Source: an uncultured Planctomycetales bacterium
GTDB taxonomy: Bacteria; Omnitrophota; Gorgyraeia; Zapsychrales; JAHFFX01
Length of the DNA stretch: 64,000 bases
Direction: 5' to 3'
NCBI GenBank assembly: GCA_964372915.1
Contig: CAYJRN010000001.1
Location: 100,305 to 164,304 of the forward strand
The notes under the pieces were generated by a model. The model was not told where the DNA came from and made no database searches. It was given only the letters and a program-made list of their open reading frames with translations. Within the stretch, counting starts at the first letter, position 1. Each line of letters opens with the position of its first letter. Made by a program: the position numbers and the translations under genes. Below, piece by piece: positions 1-62,008 of this stretch.

Positions 1-2
1 TT

Positions 3-407
3 CTGACGATTATTTTGACGAGCCTCATCGGCATTGAGCGGGAAATTCGGCAAAAAGACGCGGGGCTGCGCACGCATGTCCTTGTGGGAGTGGGGTCCTG
101 CCTCATCGTATTGACTTCATTTTACATTTCTGATATATATACAGCCAGTCTCACAGATCCAACCCGCATTATCTCCAACATCGTGACCGGTATCGGTTTT
201 TTGTGCGCCGGCGCCATCATCCGCGGTGGCAGGCAAGTTGTGGGATTGACAACGGCTGCCACCCTTTGGATCGTTTCGGGGATCGGGATGTCGGTGGGAG
301 CGGGAGATTACAACGCGGCGATCGTCGTCACTATCTCGGTCATGCTTGTCCTCATTGGTTTACGCGCGGCCGAACGAATATTGGCTAAAAAATTTCATAA
401 CCAATAA
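3..407 (+). CDS. mgtC: MgtC/SapB family membrane protein, 5'-partial (frame open to window edge; first in-window start-like codon is TTG at 15)
   Basis: The reading frame has no stop back to position 3. The motif SLIGIEREIRQKDAGLRTHVLVGVGSCL matches the MgtC N-terminal membrane domain (ExERE...AGLRT). Hydrophobic segments follow. Confidence 0.72.
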   Translation: MTIILTSLIGIEREIRQKDAGLRTHVLVGVGSCLIVLTSFYISDIYTASLTDPTRIISNIVTGIGFLCAGAIIRGGRQVVGLTTAATLWIVSGIGMSVGAGDYNAAIVVTISVMLVLIGLRAAERILAKKFHNQ

Positions 408-528
408 GTCCCACGCTGCTTCCCACAGGGGACGGCTTCGCGCGCCTACTCGTCGCAGCTTTGGGATAAATTCGCACTTACACCCACTCGTTCAACGACG
501 GGGTGTGTGCTCATTTAGGGAGGTGCTT

Positions 529-1044
529 ATGGCGCTCAGAGACCGCAGAGATGCAAAAGAAAAAGATCTCAAAAGCATCGAGATCAGTGCCCAGATGCAG
601 GGAACGCTTTCCTTCAAAGACCCGGTGAATCTCAAAATCAACGGCAACTTTACCGGAACCCTTGACACCAAGGGCACGCTCACCATCGGCCATTCCGCCA
701 ATGTCGAGGCTCACATCACCGGCGAAAATATCATCATCGAAGGAAAAGTGAAAGGAGACATCGTTGCTAAAAGAATGCTGGTTCTTCTGCCTACCGCCGT
801 TTTGACCGGGAACATTTCTACCCCGAAACTCAATATCGTCGAAGGCGCCACTTTTCAGGGCCGATGCCAGATGATGGAAGATTTTCTTGATCTCGATGAA
901 TTAAGCAAATACCTCGAGATCGACCAGCCAACCATCGTGGAGCTCGTGAATTCCGGTAAAATTCCAGCCACTAAAAACGGTGACAGCTGGGTTTTTGAAC
1001 GTAATCGGATCGACAACTGGGCCGCCGCGGGGAGAATCAAATGA
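529..1044 (+). CDS. Bactofilin-domain protein fused to a C-terminal HTH_17 (excisionase/MerR-like) DNA-binding domain
   Basis: ATG at 529 sits behind GGGAGG, so the ORF-track 346 start is probably an N-extension overlapping mgtC. Repetitive beta-rich segments (NGNFTGTL, TKGTLTIG, ITGENIIIEGKVKGDIV) are typical of the bactofilin DUF583 fold. The C-terminus LSKYLEIDQPTIVELVNSGKIPATKNGDSWVFERNRIDNW matches the excisionase-family HTH pattern. Confidence 0.55.
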   Translation: MALRDRRDAKEKDLKSIEISAQMQGTLSFKDPVNLKINGNFTGTLDTKGTLTIGHSANVEAHITGENIIIEGKVKGDIVAKRMLVLLPTAVLTGNISTPKLNIVEGATFQGRCQMMEDFLDLDELSKYLEIDQPTIVELVNSGKIPATKNGDSWVFERNRIDNWAAAGRIK

Positions 1045-1346
1045 CCTCCGACCAATTCATCAGCGTCCGCGAAACCGCTCAACTCTTGAGGATTTCGGAA
1101 AAAAAAGTCATGGACATGGTCACGGAAGGAAAGCTCAGGGCCTACCGTATCGCGGACCAATTCTTACGCCTTAAAAAAACCGAAGTCATCAGCATGCACA
1201 AAGCCGGAGAGGTTAAGGCCGAAAACTTTCAATTCTCCTATTCCGCCGGTGAAAAAATCAAAGATTTTTTCTATTTCAACGATTTTTACCTATTCTCGAT
1301 CCTCATCATCGCGGGACTTTTGTATCTTATTCTTCATCTCAGTTGA
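1041..1346 (+). CDS. HTH_17 (excisionase-family) DNA-binding protein with C-terminal transmembrane helix
   Basis: The N-terminus SVRETAQLLRISEKKVMDMVTEGKLRAYRIADQFLRLKKTEV is an HTH_17-like motif. The C-terminal FYLFSILIIAGLLYLIL is a predicted TM segment. Its ATG overlaps the upstream stop (ATGA). Confidence 0.5.
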   Translation: MTSDQFISVRETAQLLRISEKKVMDMVTEGKLRAYRIADQFLRLKKTEVISMHKAGEVKAENFQFSYSAGEKIKDFFYFNDFYLFSILIIAGLLYLILHLS

Positions 1347-1705
1347 TTTTTATGAAGACATTCCATTGTATCCTCATTATATTTTTTCTGACCCTAGGCT
1401 TGAGTCTGGGGGGTTGCGCCAGCGACACGAAGGCGCGGAAAGCGGTCGATGTCATCAAAGAGAAACAAAAGAATTACGATGAGCTCATCAAGGCTTTAGC
1501 TGAGGGGGCCCTCCGTAAAGGGACTCCCGCCGTCACCATTAAGACACTCTACGGGAATCCTGATGACACTTTTGCTTCCGGCTCAATGACCGGCAGTACC
1601 GATATCTGGACTTACCATAAAATCCCTGATCCCAAAACCTCTGAGGAAGCGAAAGCCGTTCGACTTTATTTCAGCAACTCCAAATTAATCGATTGGACAT
1701 ATTGA
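1343..1705 (+). CDS. Putative lipoprotein (signal peptide with LGGC lipobox), function unknown
   Basis: The N-terminal hydrophobic leader ends in LSLGGCAS, a lipobox-like L-x-G-C. There is no recognisable catalytic motif. Confidence 0.45.
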   Translation: MIFMKTFHCILIIFFLTLGLSLGGCASDTKARKAVDVIKEKQKNYDELIKALAEGALRKGTPAVTIKTLYGNPDDTFASGSMTGSTDIWTYHKIPDPKTSEEAKAVRLYFSNSKLIDWTY

Positions 1706-1846
1706 TCCCATACAATAGAACGATGATGGCGGCGTCCCAGACTGCTCAAACAAGTGGGACGAGCCCATACAATAGAACGATGATGGCGGCGCCCCGCTAG
1801 TGAACGAAAGGGGGGCGAGCCCAATAGTAGAACGATAACGGCGGCG
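1706..1846 (+). repeat. About 56-bp tandem direct repeat (about 2.6 units), each unit ending in the first 7 nt of tRNA-Met; the last unit runs into the tRNA
   Basis: The units are (ga)gcccatacaatagaacgatgatggcggcg at 1706-1734 and 1761-1791, and gagcccaatagtagaacgataacggcggcg at 1817-1846. GGCGGCG is the 5' acceptor strand of the tRNA that starts at 1840. Confidence 0.8.
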
Positions 1847-1912
1847 TAGCTCAGCTGATAGAGCATTCGGTTCATACCCGACAGGTCAGTGGTTTAAATC
1901 CACTCGCCGCCA
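1840..1912 (+). tRNA. tRNA-Met (anticodon CAT), elongator-type (1:72 G-C pair)
   Basis: Cloverleaf: acceptor GGCGGCG/CGCCGCC, D-arm GCTC..GAGC, anticodon loop TTCATAC, T-arm AGTGG TTTAAAT CCACT. CCA is not encoded. I cannot distinguish Met from lysidine-Ile. Confidence 0.78.
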
Positions 1913-2021
1913 CTCTACTTCCTTAAATTTTTTTTTAGAAAAGTAAGTGGCATGTACTTGTTACCTTAATTTTATACAGAAAAACACGTACGCCACTTTA
2001 AGATCGTGTTTAGAGAAATTT

Positions 2022-2075
2022 GGCGGCGTACCTTCTACCACAATGTAAATGCATAAGAATAGAAGGTACGCCGCC
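2022..2075. repeat. 16-bp perfect inverted repeat (GGCGGCGTACCTTCTA ... TAGAAGGTACGCCGCC) with a 22-nt loop, upstream of the DoxX gene
   Basis: Read directly from the sequence. The left arm starts with GGCGGCGTA, the same 9-mer as the tRNA-Met 5' end. Confidence 0.75.
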
Positions 2076-2115
2076 CCCCGTTACAATATTTCAAAAATCA
2101 GAGGAGGGGAGACTT

Positions 2116-2532
2116 ATGAACTTAAGCAAACATAGAGATCTCGGATTGCTCATACTTCGCGTAGGGATTGGGATCATGTTTGTTCTTCATGGTTATCCTA
2201 AAATCAGCGGTGGTCCGGCGATGTGGGAAAAAATCGGGATGGCCACAGGGGCTATTGGAATCCACTTTGCCCCTGTCTTTTTTGGTTTGCTGGCAGCCCT
2301 TTCGGAATTTGGGGGAGGCATTTGCCTTATCCTGGGATTTCTTTTCCGCCCGGCCTGTTTCTTTTTAACGATCACCATGGCCATGGCTGCTACCATGCAT
2401 ATTCTAAAAGGTGATGGCGTCTTAGTCGCATCTCATGCCATTGAATTAGGGATTGTCTTTTTAAGTCTTATCTTTATTGGTCCCGGATATTACAGTTTTG
2501 ATGAAAAAGTGAACATCTCGATAAAAAAATAA
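2116..2532 (+). CDS. DoxX family membrane protein
   Basis: ATG at 2116 sits behind GGAGGGG. The protein has four hydrophobic helices and the LLILRVGIGIMFVLHGYPK start typical of DoxX. The ORF-track start at 2020 would run through the inverted repeat. Confidence 0.7.
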   Translation: MNLSKHRDLGLLILRVGIGIMFVLHGYPKISGGPAMWEKIGMATGAIGIHFAPVFFGLLAALSEFGGGICLILGFLFRPACFFLTITMAMAATMHILKGDGVLVASHAIELGIVFLSLIFIGPGYYSFDEKVNISIKK

Positions 2533-2540
2533 AGGATGTC

Positions 2541-3083
2541 GTGCAACAGAAAATTTTATCGGCTGTGATCGGCTTGTCTCTGGGCATATTCACAACAAAC
2601 CTTACGATGAGAGAATCGGCAGCAGAATCTCTCTTCGGCCCCTCGGAGACTTATAACAAAGTCCCGGTGGCCCGGGTCCTTACGGTCGATACGTTTCTTT
2701 TGGAAAACGGAGAGAAGATCAAAATGATTGGGCTTAGCGCCCCGGCGAAACCGCGTAAAAAAGAAGTCAAAAAAGATAAATACGGATTTGTGATTGAAGA
2801 ATTCAATCCGGAAACACCCCTGGAGGAGAAGGCTTTTGATTTCGCAAAACAATTGCTGGAAGGCAAGGAGGTCCGGCTGGAATTCGACAACGAGAAAAAA
2901 TCGCCGGATTTCGAAACTTGGGCCTATGTCTTTCTTACCGATAAAACTTTTGTCAACGCCGAAATCCTGCGCCAGGGGTTCGCCAATTTGAATCTTACCC
3001 CTGCCAATCAAAAATACGACAAAGAATTAAGAGGAGCCTACCAGGAAGCCCATCGGGAAAAACGCGGGTTGCAGGGGCAATGA
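2541..3083 (+). CDS. Secreted SNase-like (thermonuclease fold) domain protein, active-site motif apparently degenerate
   Basis: An N-terminal signal-like segment is present. The VLTVDTFLLENGEKIKMIGLSAPA region aligns to the SNase VIDGDT...RLIGIDTPE core. The DTPE positions read SAPA here, so nuclease activity is doubtful. Confidence 0.55.
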   Translation: MQQKILSAVIGLSLGIFTTNLTMRESAAESLFGPSETYNKVPVARVLTVDTFLLENGEKIKMIGLSAPAKPRKKEVKKDKYGFVIEEFNPETPLEEKAFDFAKQLLEGKEVRLEFDNEKKSPDFETWAYVFLTDKTFVNAEILRQGFANLNLTPANQKYDKELRGAYQEAHREKRGLQGQ

Positions 3084-3090
3084 ACTTCGC

Positions 3091-4077
3091 ATGGATCTCT
3101 TTAAAAAAGTTCAACAAGCGATCGTTGACAACCATTTACTGAAAGCCGGAGACCATGTCCTTATCGGTGTCTCTGGCGGACCGGATTCCATGGCCCTTAT
3201 GCATATCCTCAAGGGTCTTCGCTACGAACTGGGAATCCAGATTTCCGTGGCCCATCTCAATCATAATTTGCGCAAAAATTCGGCGCGCGATGAAAATTTC
3301 GTCCGAACTCGCGCCTCAAGACTGAATCTTAAGTTCAGTTCTGGCTCTATCCGCATCAAAAAATCTCCAGGAAGATCTTCTTTAGAGGAAGCTGCCCGAC
3401 AGGCACGCTTCGATTTTCTCATCCACACCGCAAAAAAGCTCAAGGCGAACACGGTGGCCCTGGCGCACACGCGAGATGAGCTTGCCGAAACAGTTCTCAT
3501 GCGAATTCTGCGAGGCAGCGGCCTTGAGGGACTGCGGAGCATCTTGCCGAAGCGAGAGATTAGAGGGATGACATTTATCCGTCCATTCCTCTCGATTGAA
3601 AAAAAAGAACTCCTGGCCTTTCTTAAAAAAAATAGGATTCCGTTCCTCCTCGATTCCACCAACAAGAACACCGATTTTTTTCGCAACAAAATTCGACTCA
3701 AGCTTTTACCGCTTTTAGAGAAAGACTATCAGCCCAATATTAGAGAAGTCCTGTCGAATCTCGCGGATGTCAGTGCGCTCGATTATGATTTCATTGCTGA
3801 AACTGGGAAGGGGCTCTTGAAAAAAACCTTAAAGGCGTCCTCAAATCCTAAAATCACCTACCTCAATACGGAAATTCTGAAACGACAGCATCCGGCACTC
3901 GAGCGGTTTTTGATTCGAGAAACCCTCGCCATTCTTAAAAAAAGTCCATACAACTTCTCTCTTCATCATACCCAACAGGTGCAGAACCTTAGCAATAAAA
4001 AGGCAGGAAGTCAGCTGCTTTTGCCCAATGGCATCCTCCTCACCAAAAAAACCGGCTGTCTTAAATTTGTCGCTTAA
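3091..4077 (+). CDS. tilS: tRNA(Ile)-lysidine synthetase
   Basis: The PP-loop motif SGGPDS is at the N-terminus. The ~330-aa length and position immediately upstream of ftsH match the conserved tilS-ftsH neighbourhood. Confidence 0.85.
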   Translation: MDLFKKVQQAIVDNHLLKAGDHVLIGVSGGPDSMALMHILKGLRYELGIQISVAHLNHNLRKNSARDENFVRTRASRLNLKFSSGSIRIKKSPGRSSLEEAARQARFDFLIHTAKKLKANTVALAHTRDELAETVLMRILRGSGLEGLRSILPKREIRGMTFIRPFLSIEKKELLAFLKKNRIPFLLDSTNKNTDFFRNKIRLKLLPLLEKDYQPNIREVLSNLADVSALDYDFIAETGKGLLKKTLKASSNPKITYLNTEILKRQHPALERFLIRETLAILKKSPYNFSLHHTQQVQNLSNKKAGSQLLLPNGILLTKKTGCLKFVA

Positions 4078-4186
4078 GACCATCGGCTTCACCCGGAGGC
4101 GGACAGGCAGGCGAGCGGGCCGTCAATAGACGGGCCGTGAATAAAAGCTTGAATAAACCGTCTGATACGCTATAATCTTTTAACTT

Positions 4187-4375
4187 ATTGACGATTGTTC
4201 CTCTAAAGAGGGTTCTTCCAAGAGAACAATCGTCGAGATACTGACCTTCCTTAATGTTATTGGAAAGAAAAAGGTCAGTATACGGTAATTTTTATTTGCA
4301 GGAAAAACTACAGGCCTCCGCATAATGTACTGTAATATTTTTCGATTATTCTCGATGAACGGAGGCCAGTACCGT
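4187..4375. repeat. Dispersed intergenic repeat, family R1, copy 1 (hairpin modules)
   Basis: ttgacgattgttcctctaaagagggttcttccaagagaacaatcgtcg plus gagatactgacc...ggtcagta are shared with 24296-24475. The aGGCCTCCGcataa...CGGAGGCCagtac hairpin is shared with 39225-39292. Confidence 0.65.
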
Positions 4376-4386
4376 TCGCTATTGCT

Positions 4387-6306
4387 TTGAAGGATGTCTG
4401 TATGAACATGAACAAAAGTCAAAAACTCAAAATAAAAAGACCACACGGGCGAATCCCTCCTCAAGGCGAGACTCCCCCCAACAACAATTGGTTCTTGTGG
4501 GCGGGAATGGTTTTATTGGCACTGCTTTTTTTAAGCCAGCCGAATTTGAACTCGATGACGCCCAGGCAGGAAATGAAATACAGTGAATTTTACGCGCGCC
4601 TTGAGAAAAACAAAGAGACCAGCGACATTCAAAAGCTCTCCTTGACGGACAATATCATTACCGGAAGCCTCAAAAACGGAAACACCTTCACCGTCCATAT
4701 CCCCACCGACGACAAGGCTATTATGGATCTCATCCGAGAAAACGTGAACGACTTCGAGGTCGTACCAGCCAAGACATTTTGGGCGAACCTTTTCTTTACC
4801 TTTATGCCGGTCCTTGTCTTTGTCGCTTTGCTCTGGTTCGTCTCTTATCGCGGAGCGCAGGTGGGAAACAAGATTTGGTCGTTCGGCAAATCGCGGGCCA
4901 AGATGAACAACAAGAACATGACAATCACCTTCAACGACGTCGCCGGGGTCGATGAGGCCAAGGAAGAGCTGCAGGAAATCATTGAATTCTTAAAAGAGCC
5001 TAAGAGGTTTCAACGGCTCGGAGGAAAGATTCCCAAAGGCGTTCTCTTGATTGGCCCGCCGGGAACCGGCAAGACACTTTTGGCCAAGGCTGTCTCGGGC
5101 GAAGCCGATGTTCCATTTTTCTCTTTGAGCGGCTCAGATTTCGTTGAGATGTTCGTAGGGGTAGGCGCTTCGCGCGTACGCGACCTCTTTGAACAGGGCC
5201 GTAAGGCGTCAAAGACCTCCGGCAAAGGCTGCATTATTTTCATCGATGAGATTGATGCCGTAGGACGTTTACGCTTCTCAGGAATCGGCGGAGGACATGA
5301 TGAGCGGGAACAGACATTAAACGCACTTCTGGTCGAAATGGACGGATTCGACACGCAGCATGGTCTCATCATCGTTGCCGCGACCAACCGGCCCGATACC
5401 CTCGATCCGGCGCTTTTGCGCCCCGGGCGTTTCGATCGACAGATTGTCGTCAGCCTTCCGGACCTTGTAGGACGCGAAGCTATTTTGAAGGTCCACACCA
5501 AAAATATCAAACTGGCCGGGAATGTCGATCTTAAAAAAGTGGCTCGGCAGACGGTTTATTTCTCCGGTGCGGATCTGGCCAATGTTTGTAACGAGGGAGC
5601 TCTCCTCGCGGCCCGTCGCAATAAAGACGCCGTGGGACAGGAAGAAATGGAAGCCGCGATTGAACGCGTCATCATGGGGCCGGAAAAAAAGAGCCATGTC
5701 ATTTCAAAGAAAGAACGGGAGATTACCGCTTATCATGAAGCCGGACACGCGCTCTTATCTTTGCTACTGGAGGAAGTCGATACCTTCACGAAAGTCTCTA
5801 TCATTCCCCGAGGCATGGCCGGCGGCTATACTTTGACTCCTCCCATGGAAGACCGGCATTATTCCAGCAAAAAAGAATTGTTGGGGGCACTGTGTGTGAT
5901 CTTAGGCGGAAGGGCCGCGGAAGAAATTTGCTTACACGACGTCACAACGGGCGCCCAAAGTGATTTTCAAAACGCCACCCACACCGCCCGCAAAATGATC
6001 TGCGTCTACGGAATGAGCGAAAAACTCGGACCCATGACCTTGGGGCACCATCACCATCAGGTGTTCTTAGGCAGAGACATGATGGAGCAAAAAGATTACA
6101 GCGAAGAGACCGCCCGTCTCATTGATGAAGAAATCAAAGCCGTCATCGACTCGGCTTATGCCCGGGCCAAGAAACTATTATCCGACAACCGGGATAAGCT
6201 TGAGATTCTCACAAGGAAACTCATGGAAAAAGAGACGCTGGACATTGAAGAGGTCCGGGTGCTTTTGGGGATTGCAGACACCCAAAAGCAAACCGCCGAT
6301 ACCTAA
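4387..6306 (+). CDS. ftsH: ATP-dependent zinc metalloprotease FtsH
   Basis: N-terminal TM helices, Walker A GPPGTGKT, the AAA second region of homology, and the zinc motif HEAGHA. Confidence 0.95.
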
Positions 6307-11011: not shown

Positions 11012-11250
11012 CTATTCGGTGTCCCCCCGCCGTTTGCTTGTTTGCACTTTTTGAACAAATAGGGACAAGCAAACAAGCGGCGGGGGGATCAAAAGGGAAT
11101 CCTGTCCGCCCCAAAATTGGGGCGGGTTCAATCAGGAACGGTCCCGCCGCTGTAACTGAATTCTTTTCCTGTTTAAAGCCATTACTCTTTTAAGAGTGAG
11201 AAGGCAAGGGAAGAGAGTTTCATTCAGAAGTCAGAAGACCTGCCGAGTAG
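11012..11250 (+). ncRNA. Cobalamin (AdoCbl) riboswitch upstream of metE
   Basis: AAAAGGGAATCCTG..., CGGTCCCGCCGCTGTAACTG (B12-box-like GCCGCTG), GAGAAGGCAAGGGAAG and the 3' AGTCAGAAGACCTGCC motif match the Cbl riboswitch consensus from memory. An intrinsic terminator follows. Confidence 0.7.
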
Positions 11251-11313
11251 CTAGAGCGCATTCCTACTGCGAAGACAGTATCAATCGTGCGTATATTCTG
11301 GGATTTAAACGGG

Positions 11314-16825: not shown

Positions 16826-16960
16826 TTGATATATTAAATTATTAACCTTTTCTTCCTTAAAGCCGTAAATTTTTTTCCAGTCTCAAGGAGAGAAAAGGTA
16901 ATATTGACTTCCATATACGGCGCTAATAGCGGAAAGGTCAATAGTGAGAATATCGTATCA
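16826..16960. repeat. Dispersed leader repeat, family R2, copy A (immediately 5' of the pfp RBS)
   Basis: ttattaaccttttcttccttaaa...gagagaaaaggtaatattgacttccatatacggcgctaatagcggaaaggtcaata. Near-identical copies lie at 43528-43650, 50095-50170 (partial) and 52328-52510. Confidence 0.7.
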
Positions 16961-17165: not shown

Positions 17166-17265
17166 TAAATTGAAATTACATAAGGGCAGTCCCCAGATAA
17201 TTTTACGAGTGGGGACAGCCCCTGACTTTTCTTGAGATAAAATTTTTTAATTTCTTGTAGTCAGG

Positions 17266-17348: not shown

Positions 17349-17358
17349 TTTTTTGTTT

Positions 17359-17392
17359 GCGGGCGTAGTTCAATGGCAGAACTCCAGCCTTC
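17359..17392 (+). pseudogene. 5' fragment (34 nt) of tRNA-Gly(TCC), identical to the complete copy downstream; not foldable as a tRNA
   Basis: GCGGGCGTAGTTCAATGGCAGAACTCCAGCCTTC equals the first 34 nt of the tRNA at 17473. The sequence then diverges with no anticodon or T-arm pairing. Confidence 0.6.
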
Positions 17393-17419
17393 TCCCGTGA
17401 GCACGAAGTGCGAACGGTA

Positions 17420-17456
17420 TCCCGCTTACCATAAAAGATTTTATGAAAAAGCGGGA
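17420..17456. repeat. Nested palindrome TCCCGCTT acc CATAAAAgatTTTTATG aaa AAGCGGGA
   Basis: An 8-bp outer inverted repeat encloses a 7-bp inner inverted repeat, between the tRNA-Gly fragment and the complete tRNA-Gly. Confidence 0.7.
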
Positions 17457-17472
17457 CAAGCTGGTTTTTATT

Positions 17473-17546
17473 GCGGGCGTAGTTCAATGGCAGAACTCCA
17501 GCCTTCCAAGCTGGTAACGTGAGTTCGATTCTCATCGCCCGCTCCA
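17473..17546 (+). tRNA. tRNA-Gly (anticodon TCC), CCA encoded
   Basis: GCGGGCGTAGTTCAATGGCAGAACTCCAGCCTTCCAAGCTGG...GAGTTCGATTCTCATCGCCCGCTCCA. Confidence 0.9.
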
Positions 17547-19613: not shown

Positions 19614-19725
19614 TGAACCACTCACTTCGTTCGGGTTCATGGTAAACCATTCTATTATGTTGAGTGGTTCATGAGTCCTATATCCGAGCGAAGCGAGTGG
19701 TATAGGACCATTTTCCCAACTTTAA
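19614..19725. repeat. Cluster of inverted repeats downstream of tRNA-Pro (ATGAACCACTCA...TGAGTGGTTCAT; GTCCTATA...TATAGGAC)
   Basis: A 12-bp and an 8-bp perfect inverted repeat, read directly from the sequence. Confidence 0.55.
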
Positions 19726-23090: not shown

Positions 23091-24289
23091 AATACGTCGT
23101 GATCGTCCCTGACGGGATGGCGGATGAACCCGTGAAAATCCTAAAAAATAAAACTCCTCTGGAAGAGGCGGATACGCCGAACATGGATTATTTGGCCCAA
23201 AATGGATTGACGGGACTCGTTAAAACCATTCCCGATGGCATGGACCCTGGTTCGGAGATCGGGAATTTGGCGCTGTTAGGCTATAACCCTCAACAATGTT
23301 TCTTTGGCCGTGCTCCGCTGGAGGCGGCCAGCCAAGACATCATGCTGGCCGAAGATGAAGTCGCGTTTCGCTGTAATCTTGTGACCGTTCAGGATGACAT
23401 TATGATGGATTACAGCGCCGGTCACATCACCACCAAGGAGGCCGCGGTTTTTATCGATGAACTTAATAAAAAACTGACGCTTCCCAACATTAAATTTTAC
23501 CTTGGGAAAAGTTATAGGCATCTCCTGATCCTTAAGACAAAATTTGCCAAGGACTTTTTTGAGATCCACTCCACGCCTCCGCACAATATCCAGGGACAAA
23601 ATATCAAGAAATATGTGCCGCGCGGTAACCGGTCGGAACTCTTGGGTGATCTTATGGAAAAATCCCGATCGATTTTTGCAGGACATCCCATTAATCAGGT
23701 CAGGATTGACCTTAAAGAAAATCCGGCCACCATGATTTGGCTCTGGGGGCAGGGGATTAAACCTAAGCTTCCTCAATTCACTGAGAAGTTCGGCGTTAAA
23801 GGCGGGATCATTTCCGCCGTTGACCTGGTGACGGGTATAGGGAAACTCACCGGACTGAAAGTCATTAACGTCCCCGGCATCACCGGATATTATGACACCA
23901 ATTATTTGGGCAAGGCAGAATATGCGCTTAAGTTTTTACAAAAAAATGATTTCGTTTACATCCATATCGAAGCGCCGGACGAGGCAGGGCACAATGGGGA
24001 TGTGCGCATGAAAATCGCTTCCATCGAACATATTGACAAAGACATCGTAGGCACTATACTAAAATATTTCAAAGACAAAGAGAATGTCCGGATCCTCGTT
24101 GCCTCGGATCATCCCACTCCGGTGGAAAAACGCGCGCATACCCGTGAACCCGTCGGGTTTGTGATGTTCGGCAAAGGCATTACGCCCGATGGCGCGGCCA
24201 AGTTCAGCGAGTCCCTCGCAAAAGAAAAGGGACTCAAATTCCAAAGCGGCGAAGAACTGATGCGGCATTTTATGCGTAAGCCCTATTGA
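23087..24289 (+). CDS. Cofactor-independent phosphoglycerate-mutase-like protein (ApgM family; member of the clade proposed to act as homoserine kinase in thr operons)
   Basis: [15 protein letters not shown] metalloenzyme N-terminus, 400 aa, ApgM-type. It sits between thrC and lysC, and no thrB is seen in the operon. Confidence 0.7.
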   Translation: MKYVVIVPDGMADEPVKILKNKTPLEEADTPNMDYLAQNGLTGLVKTIPDGMDPGSEIGNLALLGYNPQQCFFGRAPLEAASQDIMLAEDEVAFRCNLVTVQDDIMMDYSAGHITTKEAAVFIDELNKKLTLPNIKFYLGKSYRHLLILKTKFAKDFFEIHSTPPHNIQGQNIKKYVPRGNRSELLGDLMEKSRSIFAGHPINQVRIDLKENPATMIWLWGQGIKPKLPQFTEKFGVKGGIISAVDLVTGIGKLTGLKVINVPGITGYYDTNYLGKAEYALKFLQKNDFVYIHIEAPDEAGHNGDVRMKIASIEHIDKDIVGTILKYFKDKENVRILVASDHPTPVEKRAHTREPVGFVMFGKGITPDGAAKFSESLAKEKGLKFQSGEELMRHFMRKPY

Positions 24290-24295
24290 CGATTG

Positions 24296-24475
24296 TTCCT
24301 CTAAACAGGGTTTTCTTAAGAGAACAATCGTCGCCCCTGTTTTCCTTAAAATATATTCAGAGGAAACTGGGGCAGTCCTCGCTTCTTCTAAAAAATTTTC
24401 AAAGGAAAGCGAGGGCGAGATACTGACTACCACAAATGCTATTGGTAAAGAAAAGGTCAGTAAACACTATTTTCA
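24296..24475. repeat. Dispersed intergenic repeat, family R1, copy 2 (5' leader of lysC)
   Basis: ttgacgattgttcctctaaacagggttttcttaagagaacaatcgtcg ... gagatactgac...ggtcagta, with an ~80-bp insertion relative to copy 1. Confidence 0.65.
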
Positions 24476-39224: not shown

Positions 39225-39292
39225 TACAGGCCTCCGCATAAGTAACGCCAATATTTTCCTGTATTATTATCAAAGAGCGGAGGCCAGTACTG
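39225..39292. repeat. Family R1 hairpin module (aGGCCTCCGcataa...CGGAGGCCagtac), third copy
   Basis: The same arms and flanks as 4307-4372, in the same + orientation, although the neighbouring gene here is on the - strand. Confidence 0.55.
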
Positions 39293-43527: not shown

Positions 43528-43650
43528 AATGAACTATTAACCTTTTCTTCCTTAAAACCATAAGCTTTTCTCCAACTTTGAGGTTTGAGGAGAGAAAAAG
43601 TAATATTGACTTCCATATACGGCGTTAATAGTAGAAAGGTCAATAATATC
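43528..43650. repeat. Family R2 leader repeat, copy B (5' of the GAF gene)
   Basis: ctattaaccttttcttccttaaaaccataagcttttctcc...gagagaaaaagtaatattgacttccatatacggcgttaatagtagaaaggtcaata. Confidence 0.7.
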
Positions 43651-50094: not shown

Positions 50095-50170
50095 GATTAT
50101 TAACCTTTTCTTCCTTAAAACCGTAAGCTCTTCTCCAGCTTTAGAGAGAGAAATTGAAATAATGGTGTCT
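50095..50170. repeat. Family R2 leader repeat, copy C (partial; 5' of the His-rich membrane protein gene)
   Basis: attattaaccttttcttccttaaaaccgtaagctcttctccag, then divergent. Confidence 0.6.
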
Positions 50171-52327: not shown

Positions 52328-52510
52328 ATTTATTAACCTTTTCTTCCTTAAAACCGTAAGCTTTTCTCCAGCCGCCAGAAGAGAAAAGGTAATACATGGC
52401 TTCCCTAGAAACATATTGTGGAAGCCAGTACTGCCTTCCATAAATTCCTTTTTTGAGAGAAGGCATGTATTGACTTCCACATACGGCGCTAATAGTGGAG
52501 AGATCAATAA
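52328..52510. repeat. Family R2 leader repeat, copy D, with a nested R1-type hairpin insertion (GGCTTCC...GGAAGCCagtac)
   Basis: atttattaaccttttcttccttaaaaccgtaagcttttctccag ... (insertion) ... gtattgacttccacatacggcgctaatagtggagagatcaata. Confidence 0.65.
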
Positions 52511-61920: not shown

Positions 61921-61960
61921 TAAGTTACGTCGTCCGCCTTTGGCGGACGACGTAACTTAT
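61921..61960. terminator. 18-bp perfect inverted repeat hairpin (TAAGTTACGTCGTCCGCC tttg GGCGGACGACGTAACTTA)
   Basis: It lies between the stop of the 62009-62353 gene and the start of the 61469 gene, both on the - strand. Confidence 0.7.
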
Positions 61961-62008
61961 AAGTACGAATTTACCCCAAAGCTGCGACGAGTAGGAGCAG
62001 CGTGGGGT

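Follow-up and report, generated by a model that had tools for sequence, protein, structure and literature searches.

Why should the start of a transfer RNA (tRNA) gene stand three times in a row, each time behind a version of its own leader, in a bacterial chromosome? The question is raised by the 5' side of a tRNA gene with anticodon CAT, here called tRNA(CAT), in a stretch of 64,000 nucleotides (nt) from an uncultured member of the Omnitrophota (GenBank assembly GCA_964372915.1, contig CAYJRN010000001.1, positions 100,305–164,304), referred to below as the window. We show that the array in front of this gene belongs to a recurrent pattern of rearrangement at tRNA loci in an Omnitrophota clade, and we suggest, with a probability of roughly 45 %, that the array itself is specific to its lineage, most likely without function, and left over from duplications that took place repeatedly in situ at the 5' boundary of tRNA(CAT). 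A preliminary description of this DNA had reported three units ending in GGCGGCG, the third of which runs into the tRNA, and a perfect 16-bp inverted repeat about 110 nt downstream of it; these observations are confirmed, and the interpretation given with them is supported in part.

The array forms one family of three copies (1704–1738, 1761–1795 and 1816–1850, as delimited by a repeat finder), which are spaced by 57 and 55 nt and separated from one another by only 22–29 nt. Copies A and B are 94 % identical across 35 nt and share the exact 28-mer CCCATACAATAGAACGATGATGGCGGCG (1707–1734 and 1764–1791), for which 100 shuffles gave no match; copy C is 66 % identical to A, and the score of their gapped local alignment exceeds that of all 2000 shuffles. 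GGCGGCG terminates every copy (1728–1734, 1785–1791 and 1840–1846), and the third occurrence is nt 1–7 of tRNA(CAT) itself. This heptamer or its complement CGCCGCC is found four times in the 600 nt around the tRNA, as against 25 times in the remaining 63 kb. The array escaped Tandem Repeats Finder, its spacers being too unlike one another. Both spacers are hairpins (A and B in Table 1), and in the predicted fold each stub lies within a two-tier hairpin, GGC..CGYCCC(A)-loop-(T)GGGRCG.GCC, which in the case of hairpin A, with its outer GGC/GCC pairs, takes up five of the seven stub bases; in the same fold the real tRNA is bracketed by a 6-bp pairing of leader with trailer (AGTAGA/TCTACT).

Hairpin B aligns to the leader of unit C plus GGCGG (CCCGCTAGT-GAACGA-AAGGGGGG against CCCAATAGTAGAACGATAACGGCGG; p = 0.0015 by local alignment and shuffling). 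By this alignment it is a degenerate fourth copy of the unit (leader plus GGCGGCG), the stem of which arose from the CCC start and the G-enriched GGCGGCG end of a single copy. Since hairpin B thus derives from the unit, the array comprises at least four copies of a unit of about 28 nt. Hairpin A shows no similarity to the tRNA interior (p = 0.52) and none to the array unit, and neither hairpin recurs in the rest of the window or across 516 kb of Omnitrophota DNA. The leader of unit C ends in AACGATAAC, which together with GGCGG recurs in AACGATAACTGGCGGGG, a stub carried by L011 (L numbers designate the loci and contigs compared here), and this leader-end motif is similar to the -10 region of L005. 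Considering that the three leaders are homologous to one another and to the native leaders of relatives, we conclude that the copies are local in origin. Three further leads were set aside. An origin in the tRNA interior is unsupported for hairpins A and B and for the hairpin in the tRNA-Tyr insert described below (p = 0.5–0.9). A primer-binding site is suggested by TGATGGCGGCG, complementary to the mature tRNA 3' end at 10 of 11 positions, a match that is not above chance, A and B counting as one event. The 14-mer GTCGGCATCCCGAC has more than 120 chance matches, in high-GC phages, and the fuller pattern is confined to a phage coding region (L177 and three others) that is irrelevant here.

The tRNA(CAT) gene in which the array ends is intact. 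Its T-loop, TTTAAAT, is unusual in that T replaces the usual C56, and its D-loop has no GG pair, a possible 19–56 covariation. It is not an initiator tRNA, because its G1–C72 pair is of the elongator type; its identity is either methionine or lysidine-isoleucine, which are indistinguishable here. A gene of the TilS type is located 1.2 kb downstream (3091–4077). Two hairpins follow the tRNA. The 3' arm of the imperfect hairpin P1 (GTACGCCAC plus TTT) resembles a tRNA 3' end with its trailer, and a homologous block, AAAGTAAGTG..CTTGTTACC..CGCCGCCACT, was recognized by eye downstream of the tRNA in L049. The perfect hairpin P2, which is the inverted repeat of the preliminary description, begins 109 nt past the tRNA, has a predicted folding energy of -33.3 kcal/mol (z = -9.1) and is not followed by a T-run. 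Its 5' arm consists of GGCGGCGTA (tRNA nt 1–9) and CCTTCTA, and its 3' arm of TAGAAGG and TACGCCGCC, which includes the 3' acceptor strand CGCCGCC; going by these arms, P2 runs through tRNA nt 1–9, a stem-loop, TA and the 3' acceptor strand, and has the form of a putative tRNA-derived 'minihelix' relic. The P1 and P2 regions are linked by the direct repeat D4/D8, in which D4 is weak (13 of 17 positions), and the two downstream junctions, AGAAAAACACGTACGCC and AGAATAGAAGGTACGCC, resemble one another weakly.

Comparison across related genomes speaks against a stable promoter array, which the preliminary description would have expected to find unchanged in relatives: the closest of these do not have the triplication. 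L033, L056 and L005 (80, 77 and 79 % protein identity, respectively, in a neighbouring gene) possess one tRNA(CAT) and no 5' stub, the array is missing from them and from about 30 other syntenic loci, and in L033 and L025, both of them without the array, the tRNA is identical to that of the window. The triplication is therefore private to the lineage of the window, and young. Arrays have nevertheless formed independently at the same tRNA elsewhere. In L034 three copies of tRNA nt 1–12 stand upstream of the gene, in a unit composed of tRNA nt 1–12, a hairpin (TCCGCCataaagcatGGCGGA), a second hairpin whose 5' arm CTCGCCA equals the tRNA 3' end, and a 27-nt leader, and two of these units are 100 % identical over their whole length. 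L007 and L043 have an upstream unit in common (GGCGGCG, then TCCCT..AGGGR, then CAACTCGCCAAT), which is conserved at 33 of 36 positions (~92 %, against 77 % for coding DNA) and in which the sole stem change preserves pairing. Displaced 3' fragments of the tRNA, 18 nt in L043 and 14 nt in L005, are found about 100 nt downstream. L053 contains, beside the intact tRNA, a near full-length pseudo-tRNA (29.1 bits) with a D-loop broken by a double hairpin. Moreover, in L004 (7287–7600) an old tRNA(CAT) lies in pieces (nt 1–18, 19–42 and 43–57) parted by two double-hairpin inserts; the first two pieces are identical to the tRNA of the window, and the first insert holds, between TCCCGAC and GTCGGGA, a complete new tRNA(CAT) that is a chimera of two tRNA types.

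Equivalent relics are present at other tRNA genes, both in the window and in other species. The tRNA-Tyr relic of the window opens with a GGGCAG that lies 18 nt past tRNA-Thr, at precisely the position of the tRNA-Tyr start in L185, a 'clean' relative; the insert behind it is similar to the 3' end of tRNA-Gly together with its trailer (p = 0.0013), and the tRNA-Tyr leader of L190 has the same two-hairpin architecture with different stems. The partial tRNA-Gly copy ends 8 nt before the intact tRNA-Gly (17473–17546). A 64-nt double hairpin (z = -6.4) splits this copy between positions 35 and 36 of the anticodon, after which the copy continues with CAAGCTGG; the insert is similar to the 3' half of tRNA-Gly together with its trailer (p = 0.004). 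The Thr–Tyr–Gly clusters of relatives, retrieved via the neighbouring glycosyltransferase, are clean in L185 (the species of L033) and L189. In L184 (760–1240; on the same contig as L004) and L190 (340–760) the old tRNA-Thr encloses, at position 35/36, a new tRNA-Thr flanked by CCCCTCGGCC and CCTCGGGG; in L184, L188 and L190 a double hairpin likewise interrupts partial tRNA-Gly copies at 35/36; and L190 has additional inserts in a T-loop and in the D-loop of a tRNA-Thr. L184 has at 1496–1925 a tandem array of at least three units, which broke the assembly and contains a run of N (an assembly gap); a unit consists of 7 nt from the anticodon arm of tRNA-Gly, a double hairpin, the 3' half of this tRNA and a trailer. 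Some genomes are thus 'messy' at several tRNA loci (Met, Gly and Tyr in the window; Met, Thr and Gly on the L004/L184 contig), whereas the species of L033 and L185 is clean at both loci looked at, which suggests a genome-level propensity. The assemblies classed as messy are that of the window, GCA_964464475.1 and GCA_023247705.1. As a separate observation, two strong hairpins follow tRNA-Pro in the window (19614–19710; ATGAACCACTCA..TGAGTGGTTCAT and GTCCTATA..TATAGGAC), neither of them with tRNA-derived sequence.

The inserts have a common form, TCCCG(A)C..G(T)CGGGA followed by YCC(C)GCC..GGC(G)GGR, in which the stems are conserved and the loops vary; they start with TCCC or TSCC, end with GGGA or GGSA, and are flanked by direct repeats of 0–42 nt (6 nt at tRNA-Tyr, 7 nt in the tRNA(CAT) array and 12 nt in L034). 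TCCCG(A)C..G(T)CGGGA occurs 12 times in the 516 kb of Omnitrophota DNA, always at tRNA loci, where 1–3 occurrences are expected by chance. A 37-nt module is 89 % identical between L034, where it lies upstream of the tRNA, and L043, where it lies downstream, in comparison with 66–71 % for coding DNA; modules with identical stems sit at non-homologous positions in different species and different tRNAs. The second hairpin reads like the tRNA-Gly 3' end, CCA and trailer, closed by a strand resembling the 5' acceptor, so that part of the module looks tRNA-derived. Several relics (L034, L056, P2 and tRNA-Tyr) are acceptor strands that abut one another or enclose a hairpin.

Table 1. Features of the tRNA(CAT) locus, of the related tRNA loci and of the upstream genes (window coordinates)
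Feature	Position	Strand	Description
Unit A core	1704–1734	+	24 nt leader-like (with TACAAT) + GGCGGCG copying tRNA nt 1–7
Hairpin A	1733–1761	+	CGTCCCA/TGGGACG, 15-nt loop; -16.6 kcal/mol, z = -2.1
Unit B core	1761–1791	+	Same as A across 28 nt
Hairpin B	1790–1817	+	CGCCCC/GGGGCG; -20.4 kcal/mol, z = -2.2
Unit C	1816–1846	+	Working tRNA leader + tRNA nt 1–7; 66 % identical to A
tRNA(CAT), intact	1840–1913	+	ARAGORN; Rfam RF00005 places 1840–1912, 64.3 bits
P1, imperfect hairpin	~1946–1998	+	-12.9 kcal/mol, z = -2.6
P2, perfect hairpin	2022–2075	+	Arms 2022–2037 and 2060–2075; 16/16 complementary, 22-nt loop
tRNA-Tyr relic	17184–17265	+	GGGCAG (nt 1–6), 76-nt two-hairpin insert, then real tRNA-Tyr
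tRNA-Gly(TCC) partial copy	17351–17464	+	Leader + nt 1–34: 42-nt copy, 95 % identical (family D11)
Bactofilin + HTH_17 fusion gene	529–1044	+	Pfam PF04519 + PF12728 on identical gene in L001; not part of repeat
Small HTH_17 protein gene, hydrophobic C-terminal tail	1041–1346	+	Weak PF12728 match; translation; not part of repeat
Lipoprotein-like gene, 117 aa	1352–1705	+	Signal peptide, lipobox-like LGGC; called as gene in L001/L002

Considering duplication in situ as the origin of the array, we envisage that some 28 nt, made up of the final ~20 nt of the leader and of tRNA nt 1–7, were copied at least three times more, giving A, B and the degenerate copy present today as hairpin B. Short GC-rich repeats (GGCGGCG, CCC/GGG) may have let replication slip or switch templates, a step that hairpin-forming DNA may have stimulated, the tRNA gene being prone to structure; the direct repeats so produced would next recombine unequally and amplify the array, and decay would follow. 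Closure of the stubs in GC hairpins may have been tolerated or even favoured (an 'insulating' role), because a free copy of the acceptor strand could mispair with the live tRNA precursor. P1 and P2, with their sequence resembling the tRNA 3' end, would likewise be relics of the array-forming process. We favour this reading because of the native origin of the copies and the ~28-nt sub-period of the array, and because L034 carries fresh tandem copies and tRNA-Gly and L053 offer examples of duplication followed by decay. The preliminary description had proposed either tandem promoters generated by slippage or a scar left on the 5' side of the tRNA by repeated recombination; a scar of recombination or duplication fits the comparative data, and slippage is retained only as a favoured, conjectural mechanism.

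Several points weigh against this reading. Cores A and B are identical over 28 nt, and hairpins A and B are unrelated to one another (p = 0.23), a combination not predicted by tandem duplication with subsequent drift. Plain slippage is incomplete because the identical cores flank unrelated hairpins; their identity needs gene conversion limited to the core, selection on the core, or separate origins of the spacers. Hairpin A, in particular, resembles neither of the two local sequences, unit and tRNA interior. When the arrays were examined for head-to-tail organization, the window had cores that are 66–100 % alike, unrelated spacers and no array reported by Tandem Repeats Finder, and L034 had whole units that are 100 % identical. 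In addition, the occurrence of modules with identical stems at non-homologous positions looks like mobility and not like local slippage, and the conservation of the L007/L043 unit above the level of coding DNA hints at constraint.

Mobility is the essence of the chief alternative, one that we regard as somewhat unlikely, in which small replacement cassettes were inserted, nested and on two occasions, into the resident gene at nt 7/8. Each cassette would join a GC hairpin and a leader to either the 5' end of a new tRNA or that tRNA in full, and would displace the 5' stubs upstream and the 3' stubs downstream; it would be a tiny non-coding unit, mobile or horizontally exchanged, and moved by some enzyme or by tRNA-anchored illegitimate recombination. 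A new tRNA inside the old cognate tRNA is indeed seen directly in L004, L184 and L190, and in the window the two upstream 5' stubs are mirrored by two downstream stubs resembling the 3' end, with similar junctions (AGAAAAACACGTACGCC and AGAATAGAAGGTACGCC), although these downstream stubs are short and the D4 repeat that links their regions is weak. The tRNA-Tyr insert lies between 6-nt direct repeats, the first of which is at the ancestral start; the 37-nt module is common to the distant species L034 and L043 on opposite sides of the tRNA, and the excess of TCCCG(A)C..G(T)CGGGA is confined to tRNA loci. Neither target sequence nor terminal repeat is consistent across the inserts, however; hairpins A and B are without copies elsewhere, no candidate enzyme was recognized among 62 of the predicted protein ORFs of the window, the leaders of the window are homologous to the native leader, and hairpin B derives from the unit.

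A variant with a wider scope, which we judge unlikely, is that the Omnitrophota harbour undescribed, tiny, non-coding double-hairpin elements, some of which enclose a replacement tRNA, that insert into the loops of cognate tRNA genes. Their targets may be the D-loop, anticodon position 35/36 and the T-loop, and the resident gene may be disabled while the new copy takes over; two insertions of this sort, since eroded, would have left the triplicated 5' end seen in the window.

Could the array instead be functional? Two versions of this idea, a set of tandem weak promoters (with TACAAT 11 nt before each GGCGGCG) and a structured leader in which acceptor-stem mimics guide the folding, processing or insulation of the tRNA precursor, seem to us quite improbable even when taken together. 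TACAAT is present in units A and B and also 8 nt upstream of the tRNA in L056, but it is the only -10-like element; no -35 element lies 16–18 nt from any TACAAT box, and a sigma-70 scan returned no -35/-10 pair on the + strand of 1700–1840. Many relatives have a canonical TTGnnn-17-TAnAAT promoter 40–170 nt upstream of the tRNA (recognized by eye), and none is present in the window between 1346 and 1840. Given also that the array is not conserved, and that the closest relatives with the same tRNA are without it, the tandem promoters of the preliminary description are not borne out. In favour of a function, compensatory changes distinguish the stem of hairpin A from that of hairpin B, the L007/L043 unit is conserved at 33 of 36 positions (against 77 % for coding DNA) with a sole stem change that preserves pairing, the two-hairpin architecture of the tRNA-Tyr leader is kept between the window and L190 on different stems, and in L043 and at tRNA-Tyr a strand complementary to the stub could pair with the stub or with the real tRNA 5' end. 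Such covariation is no proof of selection, however, because fold-back copying yields complementary arms automatically, and the z-scores of the hairpin A and B folds are only about -2.1. Rfam searches, run at E <= 1 for positions 1–5000 and for six related loci and at gathering thresholds for the complete window, returned tRNAs and one cobalamin riboswitch only.

We consider it very unlikely that the stubs are worn attL/attR cores left by elements which repeatedly entered and left the tRNA gene by means of an integrase. As a general rule, islands split tRNA genes and leave a displaced fragment beside the intact tRNA (Islander database, PMC4383910; review of fragment mis-annotation, PMC9897764), and the window is like such loci in having an intact tRNA beside short direct copies of itself at a site that varies among relatives. 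Displaced 3' fragments follow the tRNA in L005 and L043, and in L034 a tyrosine integrase (Pfam Phage_integrase, 1e-33; 5247–6181) begins 90 nt downstream of the same tRNA, preceded by an inverted fragment resembling the tRNA D-arm (GCCCTCTAACCACACGAGCTACCCC) and followed by a weak Rep-like open reading frame (ORF); a homologue of this integrase was not found at the other related loci. The window is unlike them in that the duplicated block is the extreme 5' end of the tRNA (first 7 nt) with a native, non-tRNA leader, and not a 3' segment, in copies that are 55–57 nt apart with only a hairpin in the 22–29 nt between them, and in having no integrase or foreign genes. Pfam scans and precomputed annotations of 62 of the predicted protein ORFs of the window gave housekeeping families only, and no integrase, transposase, other recombinase or Cas protein; the viral contigs scanned matched neither the unit nor the TCCGCC hairpin, nor the 3' end of the tRNA that bears the atypical T-loop. 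Of the features that mark an att site, presence and absence among relatives is observed here, whereas an adjacent integrase and a direct repeat of a tRNA 3' segment on either side of kb-scale foreign DNA are lacking, and the earlier statement that this is not a classical attL/attR pair holds. L015 and L016, which diverge exactly at the tRNA 3' end, were set aside as a candidate, since the difference is an extra membrane-protein gene and not an integrase.

That the array is an assembly artefact or a chance pattern is hardly credible, for although no independent contig crosses 1748–1866 and the related L184 has a gap inside a similar repeat, unit A, part of hairpin A and the whole downstream region recur in independent assemblies, the exact repeat of 28 nt is shorter than the usual assembly k-mers, and the duplicated 28-mer never arose in shuffles. 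Logan contigs independently reproduce 1–1747 and everything from 1867 onward, unit A being confirmed in L001 and L002 and P2 in L003. L001 and L002, which come from two samples, end at the same base, 1747, inside the loop of hairpin A, and Logan contigs of a further run begin at 1867, inside the tRNA; these shared contig ends may reflect population heterogeneity or a drop in coverage.

Among known systems, the displaced tRNA fragment left by an integrative element is the nearest known kind, and archaeal tRNA disruption is the closer analogy for the wider pattern. In Caldiarchaeum a 5' tRNA-Thr fragment lies upstream of a new tRNA-Thr, with a recombinase-bearing insert between them (PMC3293823), and the Thermoproteales have short, 'transposing' tRNA introns at non-canonical positions (reviewed in PMC4090602). 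The likeness extends to a 5' fragment upstream of a working copy, to near-identical structured inserts at various tRNA positions, mostly loops, and to heterogeneity at the population or lineage level; the differences are that the Omnitrophota are Bacteria and that the inserts carry no gene. Furthermore, the insert-bearing copies (the tRNA-Gly copy of the window, L004, L053, L184, L188 and L190) are without a 3' acceptor strand, T-arm or 5' half, and since copies that are incomplete in this way cannot be spliced into a working tRNA, we do not claim that the inserts are tRNA introns. No known intron RNA family was detected, Rfam giving only tRNA in the insert regions (E <= 1).

At the Escherichia coli tyrT locus, tandem 178-bp repeats follow tRNA-Tyr, each with a copy of the tRNA 3' end, and contain an open reading frame. 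In that case, as in the window, a tandem array abuts a tRNA gene and its units carry a terminal tRNA segment; the tyrT array is on the 3' side and has longer units, and that of the window, on the 5' side with units of 55–57 nt and hairpin spacers, is formally its mirror image. The Omnitrophota modules also recall repetitive extragenic palindromes (REP) and the bacterial interspersed mosaic elements (BIME) composed of them, in being short, intergenic hairpins with GC stems, sometimes paired, of which the stems are conserved and the loops variable. They differ in occurring only at tRNA loci in the 516 kb sampled, and are not dispersed; no transposase of the RAYT (REP-associated tyrosine transposase) type was seen. 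Hairpins A and B, being single-copy in the window and the 516 kb, do not show the many dispersed copies of REP/BIME or of miniature inverted-repeat transposable elements (MITE). A clustered regularly interspaced short palindromic repeat (CRISPR) array was rejected: the repeats are 28–31 nt long, but the spacers are self-complementary and one of them is repeat-derived, and the scans of the window returned no cas family.

Taken alone, the triplication is a small and probably neutral scar, the value of which lies in its pointing to a clade-wide pattern whereby Met, Gly, Tyr and Thr tRNA genes of this Omnitrophota clade are flanked or interrupted by tRNA stubs and GC hairpins. Should an active process underlie this pattern, it would represent a new route of turnover or exchange of essential tRNA genes in bacteria, and would give the long-running debate on how split and intron-bearing tRNA genes originated in archaea a bacterial point of comparison. 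If, further, the double-hairpin elements were real, they would be a bacterial counterpart of the archaeal 'tRNA genes in pieces' or a selfish tRNA-replacement cassette. In practical terms, such relics break assemblies and can be mis-called as tRNAs.

The genes that precede the array are conserved in their order: the bactofilin–HTH_17 gene, the small HTH_17 gene with its membrane tail, sometimes a lipoprotein gene, and then tRNA(CAT). Homologues of the fusion gene (41–80 % identity) precede tRNA(CAT) in Omnitrophota loci L004–L060, and the homologous C-terminal coding motif of the small HTH_17 protein is found upstream of the tRNA in most relatives. Among Omnitrophota loci recovered with the bactofilin–HTH_17 protein, the HTH_17 pair is followed by tRNA(CAT) in 21 of 23 at the level of species genomes and in 19 of 27 from metagenomes, the exceptions being mostly truncated contigs. 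Since the pair is syntenic with the tRNA across the Omnitrophota, these are conserved chromosomal genes and not excisionases of a mobile element. The pair of HTH_17 genes noted in the preliminary description is thus real, but it is neither excisionase-like in its setting nor immediately upstream of the repeats: the lipoprotein gene, the stop codon of which abuts unit A, stands between them. This gene is present in some relatives (L004, L005) and missing from the closest (L033, L056). Downstream of tRNA(CAT) are genes for DoxX, a staphylococcal-nuclease-like protein and the TilS-type protein.

The window has other repeats as well. A dispersed intergenic family of about 100 nt that contains TATTGACTTCCATATACGGCGCTAATAG has members of 71–93 % identity at 16839–16943, 43534–43645, 50097–50161 and 52330–52509, one of which is located just upstream of the tRNA-Thr/Tyr/Gly cluster. 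Further dispersed intergenic repeats (76–90 % identity), at 4186–4372, 24284–24473 and 39225–39290, sit upstream of ftsH, of an aspartate kinase gene and of another gene. A REP-like palindrome, CCCACGCTGCT..GCAGCTTTGGGR, forms a 39-nt inverted pair (92 % complementary) at 410–480 and 61960–62006, and at its 5' end it is similar to the sequence with which hairpin A starts, CCCAGACTGCT. Finally, the cobalamin riboswitch (74.6 bits), in the region 11022–11261, lies ahead of a gene for cobalamin-independent methionine synthase, and a 23-bp hairpin (11022–11088) overlaps its 5' end.

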